Shown here piece by piece: positions 60,201 through 64,000 of a DNA stretch of 64,000 nt. A program made the position numbers. Source of the stretch: Escherichia coli (lineage in GTDB: Bacteria > Pseudomonadota > Gammaproteobacteria > Enterobacterales > Enterobacteriaceae). Numbering within the stretch: position 1 is the first letter of the stretch; the number at the start of each line of letters is the position of its first letter. The stretch lies in NCBI RefSeq assembly GCF_030013205.1, contig NZ_CP122648.1. One strand, 5' to 3'.

Positions 60201-63200
60201 GCAAGGCGCTGCGCCTGAGATTCACTCAACGTACCCAGCGTCATACACGCCTCCAGGCCCATCGCTTTTACCCCCTGCACCATCTGCTCCAGATAGGGCA
60301 TGTCGCGTTCGTGGGGATTCTTCCACGCCGCGCCCATACAGAAACGTGTCGATCCCGCCGCTTTCGCTTTTCGCGCCGACTCCAGCACCTGTTCAACTTC
60401 CATCAACCGCTCGGCTTCCAGCCCGGTTTTATAGCGCGAGCTTTGCGGGCAATATTTGCAATCTTCCGGACAAGCTCCGGTCTTAATTGACAGCAACGTG
60501 CTGACCTGCACCTGACGTGGATCGAAATGCTGACGATGCACCTGCTGCGCTTCAAACAGCAGATCCAGCAACGGTTTTTCAAATAATTCTGTGACTTGCG
60601 ACAATGTCCAGCGTGGGCGGTGAGCCATGGGGCTTCTCCAAAACGTGTTTTTTGTTGTTAATTCGGTGTAGACTCGTAAACCTAAATCTTTTCAATTTGG
60701 TTTACAAGTCGATTATGACAACGGACGATCTTGCCTTTGACCAACGCCATATCTGGCACCCCTACACATCCATGACCTCCCCGCTGCCGGTTTATCCGGT
60801 GGCGAGCGCCGAAGGTTGCGAGCTAATTTTGTCTGACGGCAGACGCCTGGTTGACGGTATGTCGTCCTGGTGGGCGGCGATCCACGGTTACAATCACCCG
60901 CAGCTTAATGCGGCGATGAAGTCGCAAATTGATGCCATGTCGCATGTGATGTTTGGCGGTATCACTCATGCGCCAGCCATTGAGCTGTGCCGCAAACTGG
61001 TGGCGATGACGCCGCAACCGCTGGAATGCGTTTTTCTCGCGGACTCCGGCTCCGTAGCGGTAGAAGTGGCGATGAAAATGGCGTTGCAGTACTGGCAGGC
61101 CAAAGGCGAAGCGCGCCAGCGTTTTCTGACCTTCCGCAATGGTTATCATGGCGATACCTTTGGCGCGATGTCGGTGTGCGATCCGGACAACTCAATGCAC
61201 AGCCTGTGGAAAGGCTATCTGCCAGAAAACTTGTTTGCTCCCGCCCCGCAAAGCCGCATGGATGGTGAATGGGATGAGCGCGATATGGTGGGCTTTGCCC
61301 GCCTGATGGCGGCGCATCGTCATGAAATCGCGGCGGTGATCATTGAACCGATTGTCCAGGGCGCAGGCGGGATGCGCATCTACCATCCGGAATGGTTAAA
61401 ACGAATCCGCAAAATGTGCGATCGCGAAGGTATCTTGCTGATTGCCGACGAGATCGCCACCGGATTTGGTCGTACTGGCAAACTGTTTGCCTGTGAACAT
61501 GCAGATATCGCGCCGGACATTTTGTGCCTCGGTAAAGCCTTAACCGGCGGTACAATGCCCCTTTCCGCCACACTCACCACGCGCGAGGTTGCGGAAACCA
61601 TCAGTAACGGCGAAGCCGGCTGCTTTATGCATGGGCCAACTTTTATGGGCAATCCGCTGGCCTGCGCAGCAGCAAACGCCAGCCTGGCGATTCTTGAATC
61701 TGGCGACTGGCAACATCAGGTGGCGGCTATTGAAGCGCAGCTACGCGAGCAACTTGCCCCCGCCTGTGACGCCGAAATGGTTGCCGATGTGCGCGTACTG
61801 GGGGCAATCGGTGTGGTCGAAACCACTCGTCCGGTGAATATGGCAGCGCTGCAAAAATTCTTTGTCGAACAGGGTGTCTGGATCCGGCCTTTTGGCAAAC
61901 TGATTTACCTGATGCCGCCCTATATTATTCTCCCGCAACAGTTGCAGCGTCTGACCGCAGCGGTTAATCGTGCGGTGCAGGATGAAACATTTTTTTGCCA
62001 ATAACGGGAAGTCAGCATGAGGGTTTCTGGCTACACTTTCTGCAAACTAGAAAGGAGGGTTCATGAAACTCATCAGTAATGATCTGCGCGATGGCGATAA
62101 GTTGCCGCATCGTCATGTCTTTAACGGCATGGGTTACGATGGCGATAATATTTCACCGCATCTGGCGTGGGATGATGTTCCTGCGGGAACGAAAAGTTTT
62201 GTTGTCACCTGCTTTGACCCGGACGCGCCAACCGGCTCCGGCTGGTGGCACTGGGTCGTTGTTAACTTACCCGCTGATACCCGCGTATTACCGCAAGGGT
62301 TTGGCTCTGGTCTGGTAGCAATGCCAGACGGCGTTTTGCAGACGCGTACCGACTTTGGTAAAGCCGGATACGGTGGCGCAGCGCCGCCGAAAGGCGAAAC
62401 CCATCGCTACATTTTTACCGTTCACGCGCTGGATGTAGAACGTATTGATGTCGATGAAGGTGCCAGCGGCGCGATGGTCGGGTTTAACGTCCATTTCCAC
62501 TCTCTGGCAAGCGCCTCGATTACTGCGATGTTTAGTTAATCACTCTGCCAGATGGCGCTATGCCATCTGGTATCACTTAAAGGTATTAAAAACAACTTTT
62601 TGTCTTTTTACCTTCCCGTTTCGCTCAAGTTAGTATAAAAAGGCTGAACAAGAAACAGAAAACACTGTAAATATCAATATGTTATGAAAGATTTAGTCTA
62701 AATAATAGACTGCATAATGCTACAAAACACAACATATCCAGTCACTATGAATCAACTACTTAGATGGTATTAGTGACCTGAGACAGAGCATTAGCGCAAG
62801 GTGATTTTTTGTCCTCTTGCGCTAATTTTTTGCCACACAACAGTCACATCTTCAAAAAATATGCAAAGCTTAGGGTTAATCGGCGGATGATTTTTGTCCA
62901 TTCATTTTGCGCGGGTAAGTTATGTGGTGGGTTATCGGCATCCTTTCCGTGGTTGTCATCGTGGCGACGCTTGTCGTTAGGTCACATCTGCAGGATATTG
63001 ATAATGACTATTAGCCATAAGTGGTTTCAACGCTTTGGGTAATGTAGTAGGCCACCCAGTTACCTGACTCATTAAATCTGTAAGCACAATTCAAACGAAT
63101 CGGACCGATATTATTGAATGTGCTGAGCGTTGTCCCACCAATACCATTTTTAACCAAAACTGTTGGGTTAGCAGATGATGACCCGGCTATCTTTATGTAA

Positions 63201-64000
63201 ACAATATCACCAACTACGGCAGACACTTTATCCAGCTCAATTGAATAGGTGAAGGCACCTGTACCAGCACTCATGATGATGTAGTACCTGGAGGGGTCAA
63301 GCCTTGGTTCTATTGTTAAAGTCCCAGCTGCTGCCACAGTGTGGTCGAGAAAGGTTCTCACCTGGAGGCTTGTATTTTGTGGAAACCTCACCCTTGCCCT
63401 GTTGAAAGCGGAATCCATCACTGCGTAAAGTGGGCGAACGTTGTTTCTGTAGGATCTAACCAGAACATCACTACCGTGGAAGTCGTTGCTTTGTGATCCA
63501 GAAAGTGAGTGAACTACCTCGACCTGGTTAATTGTCCCCTCTCCGACATAGCAGTCAGGGCTATTAACCACAAAATCGACGAACCTGATGTTTTGCGCAA
63601 AGTATGAGTTCAGGCGGAATGTGCTGTTTGTCGAGTTAACTACTGACTGAGCATTTGTGATTGAGTTGCCGACGATTGCGTGAATAGAGTTGATAGTCAC
63701 TTCCTGGCAGTCAACCAGAAGCACCGCATCGTAAACAAGGTCAGTGGCAAATCCATCACTTTTATAGACTTCAATGTTTCCGATTTGCAGGGATGGCCTG
63801 TTTCTGGCTCGTACTCCGTTTTGCTTAACGTTGACGTGTACGTTATCGATAAATCCACCAGGCTCGCTGGCTGGGTTGGTTAGGTCGATTCCAACAAATG
63901 CCCCAAGCCCTTCGCTGTCCTTGACAACAAACCCTTCAACGCCGTCACTCAGTTCGACAAACTTCCACCAGTTGTTTGTGTTGAATCTGATGTCTACACC

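Follow-up and report, generated by a model that had tools for sequence, protein, structure and literature searches.

At the right-hand edge of the analysed window (64,000 nucleotides of Escherichia coli contig NZ_CP122648.1), the minus strand carries a reading frame that is open over the whole of 63011-64000, with 329 sense codons followed by a single stop at 63011-63013. Over the same interval of 330 codons the remaining two minus-strand frames contain 17 and 28 stops. The earliest in-frame start codon within the window is a GTG at 63724, and for this reason the ORF list gives 63011..63724 (237 aa), a call that is an artefact of the window edge. Positions 40000-64000, the last 24 kb of the window, were 100% identical to E. 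coli ETEC4079 (NZ_CP122643.1), where the frame extends for another 1083 nt up to an ATG and encodes a 690-aa protein (CDS QDW55_RS17215, WP_282842953.1); the 5' end of the gene therefore lies outside the window, residues 1-361 falling past its end. A preliminary description of this DNA had found no stop between the GTG and position 64000, placed the true start beyond the window and called the product rich in Gly, Ser, Thr, Asn and Val. Its reading of the frame was correct, the extension that it proposed was obtained through ETEC4079, and the window fragment consists of these five residues to 45.3% (V 12.2, S 9.1, N 9.1, G 8.2 and T 6.7%). The chance that the real gene is the 237-aa product, with the frame upstream open by accident, is negligible: the in-frame GTG is indeed present, but 92 more sense codons precede it in the window, homologues of 36-97% identity align without a break across it, and the most conserved residues of the family, E383 to N418, map upstream of it. 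We rejected the shorter gene because homology runs across its putative start. The gene is real but ordinary, belonging to a known class of phage protein that public databases name correctly (the exact 690-aa protein already carries the NCBI name 'phage tailspike protein'), and the annotation value of an ORF cut by the window edge is accordingly routine.

The tailspike gene is the last gene of a prophage inserted at the lambda attachment site, between ybhB/bioA and ybhC/gal, in a porcine pathogenic E. coli O139 strain, and it lies next to attR (Table 1). Its position at the attR/bio end agrees with the earlier remark that it sits where lambdoid prophages carry host-range determinants. RefSeq annotation of ETEC4079 and of the O139:H1 strain W13-16 places it at the end of the late operon, after immI (mnt-arc-ant), and the neighbouring genes are ant, arc, a mnt-like gene and those for DNA-transfer (ejection) proteins, tail needle, P22-type capsid, scaffold, portal and terminase, the gene context of a P22-like tailspike. 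This P22-like prophage, whose integration module is of lambda type, is a defective remnant of about 20 kb: the immC (no repressor), replication, late-activator and lysis genes have been lost, a truncated Rz is joined to xis-int, and an ejection-protein gene is a pseudogene.

Table 1. Features at the attR end of the prophage (window coordinates)
Feature	Position	Strand	Remarks
Tailspike gene, 3' 990 nt	63011..64000	-	Residues 362-690 and stop codon 63011-63013
Right-handed parallel beta-helix (predicted), C-terminal half	63416..64000	-	Residues 362-556
C-terminal beta-sandwich domain (predicted)	63035..63352	-	Residues ~578-683; covered by no Pfam family
Most conserved stretch of the family, candidate substrate groove/active site	63830..63937	-	Column conservation in the 57-sequence alignment A2
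E383	63935-63937	-	100% conserved
E391	63911-63913	-	90% conserved
Motif E407-PGGFIDNVHVN-418, including H416 and N418	63830-63865	-	P408/G409 96%, H416 96%, N418 91%
R429 and Y440	just downstream of the 63830-63865 motif	-	83% and 92% conserved
Possible ORF of 30 codons, MWWVIGILSVVVIVATLVVRSHLQDIDNDY	62922..63014	+	Unannotated; read from the sequence
Terminator hairpin, TTAGCGCAAGG...CTTGCGCTAA then TTTTTT	62791..62831	+	Located in the sequence
Phage attP P-arm DNA	62645..62835	.	Common to many lambda-att prophages
attR core, GCCTTTTTATACTAA	62630..62644	-	Junction of chromosomal B' arm (ybhB side) and phage P arm

The partner attL core, TTAGTATAAAAAAGC, was found beside int/ybhC (L006 7670-7684), 20.4 kb from attR in ETEC4079. 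Of 5426 E. coli genomes, 2048 share the phage-arm DNA from 62660 to about 62835 at 90-99% identity, and only 20 share the tailspike part. The hairpin in this arm is oriented as for int transcripts that read through attP and is presumably a lambda-type tI/sib-like element; the promoter and terminator scan, which returned nothing above shuffled background, did not pick it up, its loop exceeding 8 nt. A search of 62000-64000 against Rfam (E<=0.1) gave no match. Between the hairpin and the tailspike gene lies a short reading frame whose standing as a gene is uncertain. It would encode a single hydrophobic helix and converges on the tailspike gene, with whose stop codon it has a 4-nt overlap; an identical copy stands beside a 789-aa form of the tailspike in strain EC5654, and similarity to strain CFSAN018748 begins only at 62932, inside it. 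In public assemblies 86 contigs carry it as an ORF call without a name, no source names it, and tblastn gave no match in the phage collection.

Domain searches with the complete protein revealed a P22-type adaptor at the N-terminus. Residues 1-113, outside the window, match the Pfam family Head_binding (PF09008) at E=1.1e-66 (222.6 bits against a cut-off of 24) and are the domain by which the spike plugs into a P22/Sf6-type tail hub. In a PDB sequence search, Sf6 gp14 (7sg7) matched residues 1-249 at E=8e-75 and the N-domains of the P22 tailspike matched at E~1e-50, with no match past residue 249; residues 362-690 thus matched no solved structure in sequence. Likewise, a PHROG scan of the window fragment alone found no family, and the best PHROG match of the full protein, 'tail spike protein with colanic acid degradation activity', covered residues 1-229 only. 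Residues 116-690, modelled as a monomer, were predicted with high confidence (pLDDT 92) to form a central right-handed parallel beta-helix followed by a C-terminal beta-sandwich. The comparison with known structures that the preliminary description had suggested was run with Foldseek, and the predicted fold resembles those of tailspike depolymerases, Phi92 colanidase gp150 being among the matches. The pectate-lyase-like cap family PF12708 (Pect-lyase_RHGA_epim) scored 23.2 bits on the query, below its gathering threshold of 27, and was matched by 19 of 57 homologues (best E=9.8e-19). Short proteins of 133-275 aa, in no Pfam family, match only the C-terminal domain and may be fragments at contig ends.

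These results identify the protein as a tailspike of the P22-family podoviruses, which is a short spike of enzymatic type, as opposed to a tail fibre. The name 'tail-fibre-like' given previously was apt in that this is a phage receptor-binding protein, as the Head_binding N-terminus, the beta-helix and the NCBI name indicate, and needs refining as to class. A non-phage beta-helix adhesin was also considered and rejected. A lambda-type side tail fibre (Stf-like) is scarcely credible, even though the gene stands by attR on the bio side, the place of J, lom, stf and tfa in lambda, and the attP arm resembles that of lambda: the protein begins with a P22 head-binding domain and continues as a beta-helix, Pfam recognised no fibre domain in it, and the neighbouring structural genes are all those of a P22-like podovirus. 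Residues 116-690 gave no lambda match in a tblastn search of 50,697 phage records, and the 366 bp from the tailspike stop codon to attR hold no tfa-sized ORF for a chaperone, in keeping with the initial impression that lambda stf/tfa is not matched. What is shared with lambda Stf/Tfa is the role of host-range determinant adjoining attR/bio in a lambda-att prophage; homology is absent, the fold is another, lambda is a siphovirus, and no chaperone gene follows here. The domain and context results together rule the side tail fibre out.

The closest known system is the tailspike gp14 of Shigella phage Sf6 (7sg7, 2vbk, 4urr), an endorhamnosidase with a nearly identical head-binding domain, a similar neck and cap (residues 1-249), the same plan of adaptor, right-handed beta-helix and C-terminal beta-sandwich, and the best Foldseek TM-scores among tailspikes (0.46-0.51). 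Both proteins are encoded in P22-like podovirus genomes, and the likely substrates of both are Rha-rich O-antigens. Past residue ~250, however, there is no meaningful sequence similarity, identity in structural alignments falls to 12-15%, and gp14 has 623 aa against 690 here. The tailspikes of Salmonella phage P22 (gp9; 2xc1, 1lkt) and of E. coli phage HK620 (2vji) match in sequence in the N-domain only, and their receptor-binding domains differ. The integration module also differs, being lambda-type here with its attR core at bio, whereas P22 uses its own attachment site. AlgE4 mannuronan C5-epimerase (2pyg) and the coliphage K5A lyase (2x3h), pectate-lyase-like beta-helix enzymes acting on uronic-acid polymers, are also among the closest systems.

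Conservation across the 57 sequences of alignment A2 peaks in the part of the beta-helix that lies upstream of the GTG (Table 1). E391, H416 and Y440 are spaced by 24-25 residues, about one rung of the helix, and may therefore stack along a groove. The profile of the family matched the N-terminal cap region of several solved beta-helix enzymes and nothing further, so homology gave no means of assigning catalytic residues; those proposed here are a guess from conservation.

If it behaves like the tailspikes of P22, Sf6 and HK620, the protein would assemble as a homotrimer. The groove of the beta-helix, with E383, E391, H416, N418, R429 and Y440, would bind and cleave a surface polysaccharide, and the cleavage would let the virion work its way down to the outer membrane.

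The receptor-binding module is rare: tailspike DNA was present in 20 of 5426 complete E. coli genomes, 17 of them of serogroup O139. The same module was also found on other adaptors, namely with Phage_T7_tail (P0001, 97% identity), with Tail_spike_N (P0002, 81% identity) and with DUF2793 (P0010). In the 789-aa form, present in ETEC1748 and EC5654, it is fused to an N-terminus of T7-tail-fibre type, and the gene adjoins those for a holin and a GH19 endolysin. O139 strains carry it in prophages of two different types, inserted at two sites. The module is thus mobile between phage types.

ETEC4079 carries the O139 wzy and wzx genes. Across the 5426 genomes the O139 gene cluster was present in 19, and the module in 17 of these 19 against 3 of the 5407 others; the association is inflated by shared ancestry, since the 17 O139 carriers are largely one clone. 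The three non-O139 carriers are EC5654, a human isolate of serogroup O4, CFSAN018748, which has a different O cluster, and PEC41, which is without the O139 cluster. The carriers do not all share one O-antigen cluster, that of CFSAN018748 occurring in none of the others. A strict O139 reading is weakened by CFSAN018748 and further by EC5654. These three carriers favour a tailspike that acts on some other surface glycan shared by several serogroups (a capsule or K antigen, colanic acid, ECA or a Rha-containing epitope), and so do the PHROG annotation and the fold match to the Phi92 colanidase. We consider such a substrate rather unlikely. The PHROG match spans the adaptor and cap region and not the specificity region, the module is concentrated in O139 genomes, and the presence of the module in two unrelated prophage types of O139 strains suggests repeated acquisition by phages of O139 hosts. 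In addition, the proteins flanking the module in CFSAN018748 are identical to those of the O139 clone, and this strain may thus have exchanged its O cluster after it became lysogenic.

By analogy with the related spikes, specificity for the O139 O-antigen is likely, and on balance we favour it as the substrate. Its repeating unit is a heptasaccharide of Rha4/Glc/GlcNAc/GalA (PMC4906484). Cleavage might proceed by hydrolysis or by beta-elimination at GalA. The lyase idea arises because the family conserves a ladder of Glu, His, Arg and Tyr and because the closest folds are those of uronate epimerases and lyases. Residues 116-690 have about 55 clusters at E<1e-10 among 1.8 billion representatives, with no PHROG, no solved relative and no Pfam family over the catalytic half or the C-terminal domain, and the 690-aa protein did not turn up in literature searches on tailspikes or phages specific for O139. 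The bolder proposal that these residues form an uncharacterised depolymerase family, the first tailspike specific for the O139 O-antigen and perhaps a GalA lyase instead of an endorhamnosidase, seems to us improbable as a whole.

Overall, 63011-64000 very probably encodes residues 362-690 of a 690-residue P22-family tailspike in a prophage remnant of an O139 strain. The practical value is modest and relates to edema disease, which E. coli O139:H1 strains cause in pigs and wild boar. A depolymerase that acts specifically on the O139 O-antigen could serve in typing, in diagnostics and in the retargeting of therapeutic phages, and the module is a ready candidate, being almost confined to O139 genomes and having already moved between at least two types of phage. 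The locus also illustrates cleanly how a P22-like prophage can use the lambda att/int/tI module, and how a prophage decays through different deletions inside one clone.

The prophage is unable to make phage on its own, and its tailspike gene is a relic. That the host instead retains an intact tailspike for its own benefit, as a recombination reservoir, for trimming its own O-antigen or for phage exclusion, is very unlikely. Two members of the O139 clone with different internal deletions, ETEC4079 and W13-16, both keep the full 690-aa ORF and the immI genes, the module has moved between phage types, and outside the recombination junction the allele differs from that of ETEC1748 by about 4 non-synonymous against 11 synonymous codons. 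The gene stands at the extreme end of the prophage, however, where position alone protects it from internal deletions; the clone, at 99.6-100% nucleotide identity, is too young for decay to be visible; and the late-gene activator has been deleted. W13-16 shares the ejection-protein pseudogene and has an intact tailspike. Compared with three other alleles, that of ETEC4079 carries four amino-acid substitutions of its own (G257V, A523V, A565V and Y581H), which may reflect relaxed constraint.

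Translation of the minus strand over 63011-64000 gave 329 sense codons followed by a single stop codon, TAA at 63011-63013, while the remaining two minus-strand frames contain 17 and 28 stops across the same interval. The frame was thus found on re-inspection to be open up to 64000, as the preliminary description had stated. The mechanical ORF call covers only 63011..63724 (237 aa), because the GTG at 63724 is the earliest in-frame ATG, GTG or TTG within the window. Gly, Ser, Thr, Asn and Val account for 45.3% of the encoded fragment, in agreement with the enrichment noted before. 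Positions 62000-64000 match E. coli ETEC4079 (NZ_CP122643.1), an isolate from a pig in Belgium, at 100% identity, as does the longer stretch 40000-64000 (24,001 bases), and this genome could therefore be used for reading beyond the window edge. There, the frame extends 1083 nt further, up to an ATG, and encodes a 690-aa protein (WP_282842953.1), confirming that the real gene is longer and has its 5' end outside the window. The protein is annotated in ETEC4079 as "phage head-binding domain-containing protein", and NCBI holds the exact sequence also as "phage tailspike protein"; the public databases already annotate the gene correctly.

Residues 1-113 matched the Pfam family Head_binding (PF09008) end to end (E=1.1e-66), the N-terminal region matched the P22 tailspike N-domain (E~1e-50), and residues 1-249 matched the Sf6 tailspike gp14 (PDB 7sg7; E=8e-75). 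Comparison of the predicted structure with the Sf6 tailspike using Foldseek gave TM scores of 0.46-0.51, and PF12708, a pectate-lyase-like cap family, was matched by 19 of the 57 family members, with the 690-aa query slightly below the cut-off. The head-binding domain, the predicted beta-helix and the genomic position are all present, and the gene is a P22-family tailspike. Identity with lambda Stf/Tfa, which the preliminary description had also failed to recognize, was rejected, as the 690-aa protein lacks the defining features of those proteins.

Judged by sequence, residues 116-690, the receptor-binding module, have weak relatives at most among characterized proteins. The best match among 50,697 phage records was to an unannotated gut contig at 26% identity, a PHROG search with the window fragment matched no family, and a PDB sequence search matched no solved structure past residue 249. 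A search of 1.84 billion cluster representatives yielded 297 relatives with E<=1e-3, of which 55 reached E<=1e-10 and 19 reached E<=1e-30. The most conserved residues of the family are D323, Q346, E383 (invariant), E391, P408-G410, H416, N418, R429 and Y440, those from E383 onward all being encoded within the window (63830-63937 and just downstream). The spacing of E391, H416 and Y440 is 24-25 residues, about one rung of a beta-helix, and we infer that they may line one groove, a candidate binding or catalytic site. Six short relatives of 133-275 aa (P0063, P0065, P0074, P0076, P0082 and P0083) matched only the C-terminal beta-sandwich (residues ~577-690) and gave no hit in Pfam. They are perhaps fragments from contig ends, or else copies in which the domain stands alone.

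In ETEC4079, the nearest genes upstream of the tailspike are, in order, ant, arc, an mnt-like Arc-family gene and small ORFs, followed further upstream by a pseudogenized lytic-transglycosylase/ejection gene, DNA-transfer proteins and the tail needle, and beyond these by P22-type major capsid, scaffold, portal and terminase. Such an arrangement is that of a P22-like podovirus late region, in which the tailspike occupies its canonical position behind immI. On the downstream side, the attachment core lies only 366 bp from the tailspike stop codon. Of 5426 E. coli genomes, 2048 share the P arm (62660-~62835) and only 20 share the tailspike DNA. The virion genes of the prophage are P22-like; its integration module is of the lambda type, and its site is lambda attB. 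On the lambda map, the bio-adjacent end of a prophage at this site is the tail-gene end; the earlier remark that the gene sits where lambdoid prophages carry host-range determinants is right because of this integration module and its site. The attR core GCCTTTTTATACTAA and the attL core GCTTTTTTATACTAA of the prophage differ by a single base. The hairpin just beyond the P arm is presumably a terminator like that of lambda tI/sib retroregulation of int, here in a P22-like prophage.

Coordinates of features in the window and of the partner attachment core
Feature	Position	Strand	Description
attR core GCCTTTTTATACTAA	62630-62644	-	Between chromosomal B' arm (ybhB side) and phage P-arm DNA
attL core TTAGTATAAAAAAGC	L006 (ETEC4079 locus) 7670-7684		Partner of attR; adjoins xis-int and ybhC, 20.4 kb from attR core in ETEC4079
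Hairpin TTAGCGCAAGG-(loop)-CTTGCGCTAA, then TTTTTT	62791-62831	+	Just beyond attP P arm
30-codon ORF MWWVIGILSVVVIVATLVVRSHLQDIDNDY	62922-63014	+	Unannotated; one hydrophobic helix; convergent with tailspike, overlapping its stop codon
Molybdenum cofactor riboswitch	52961-53105	-	Upstream of moaA; Rfam RF01055, 103 bits; known, RefSeq-annotated

The ETEC4079 prophage is a remnant from which the genes for repressor, replication, late activator, holin and endolysin have all gone; truncated Rz/Rz1 genes directly abut xis, and an ejection-protein gene has become a pseudogene. Strain W13-16 (O139:H1, wild boar, France) carries the element at the same attλ site with the same pseudogenized ejection gene, but a different internal deletion has joined a truncated tail needle to the cIII-kil-recombination genes with loss of the head genes. 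The full 690-aa tailspike ORF is intact in both strains, the ETEC4079 allele being set apart from three others by four private amino-acid changes. The simplest reading is that an already defective prophage is still decaying and that the tailspike, as the terminal gene, has been spared through its position. With differing large internal deletions in one O139 clone (regions compared: L006 5949-7596 in ETEC4079 and L010 30206-36285 in W13-16), the two strains form a natural, if small, series in the decay of a prophage.

The N-terminal adaptors joined to the receptor-binding module are of four kinds at least: the P22 head-binding domain of the 690-aa tailspike under study, a T7-tail-fibre N-domain (relatives P0001 and P0003; module identity 97%), Tail_spike_N, PF18668 (P0002; 81%), and DUF2793 (P0010; 36%). 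A 789-aa form (L002 8172-10541; L007 9188-11557), annotated solely as "hypothetical protein", carries the module as its C-terminal 570 residues behind an N-terminal Phage_T7_tail domain, and parts from the 690-aa form at a junction around residues 116-141. It is encoded in both ETEC1748 (O139) and EC5654 (O4), where a prophage of another type has it at its yfgI end, alongside genes for a holin, a GH19 endolysin and DUF2514. Horizontal exchange of specificity domains among tailspikes usually takes this form.

ETEC4079 possesses the O139 wzy and wzx genes. Among 5426 complete genomes, the O139-specific gene block was present in 19 and the tailspike C-terminal DNA in 20, with both in 17. Among the matches listed, the module sits in the attλ remnant in 15 carriers, and in ETEC1748 and ETEC4069 (both O139) it lies, as part of the 789-aa form, in a different prophage, near yfgI. 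That one module is found in two types of phage among O139 hosts speaks for tropism towards O139. Three non-O139 carriers count against a strict O139 reading: EC5654, a human isolate; CFSAN018748, whose O cluster differs from O139; and PEC41, from which the O139 gene block is absent. A further point against it is that the 17 O139 carriers belong mostly to a single clone. Comparison of CFSAN018748 (L004 20703-27534) with ETEC4079 (L005 8180-14476) revealed identical proteins on both sides of the O locus (wcaK/L/M, galF, rfbB/D, hisC/D and dacD), flanking a wzx/wzy/glycosyltransferase block completely unlike that of the O139 clone; in addition, the ugd-wzzB interval of CFSAN018748 lacks the epimerase gene. 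Because of these identical flanks, the O-antigen cluster of CFSAN018748 may have been swapped within the clone, after lysogeny. No description of an O139-specific tailspike was found in the literature searched; the tailspike is an ordinary object, of some applied interest where E. coli of edema disease is concerned.

The 30-codon ORF had no match in the phage collection. It accompanies the tailspike module in a different prophage type, with an identical copy in EC5654, and in CFSAN018748 the similarity starts 10 nt inside it. The ORF is called, without a name, on 86 public contigs.
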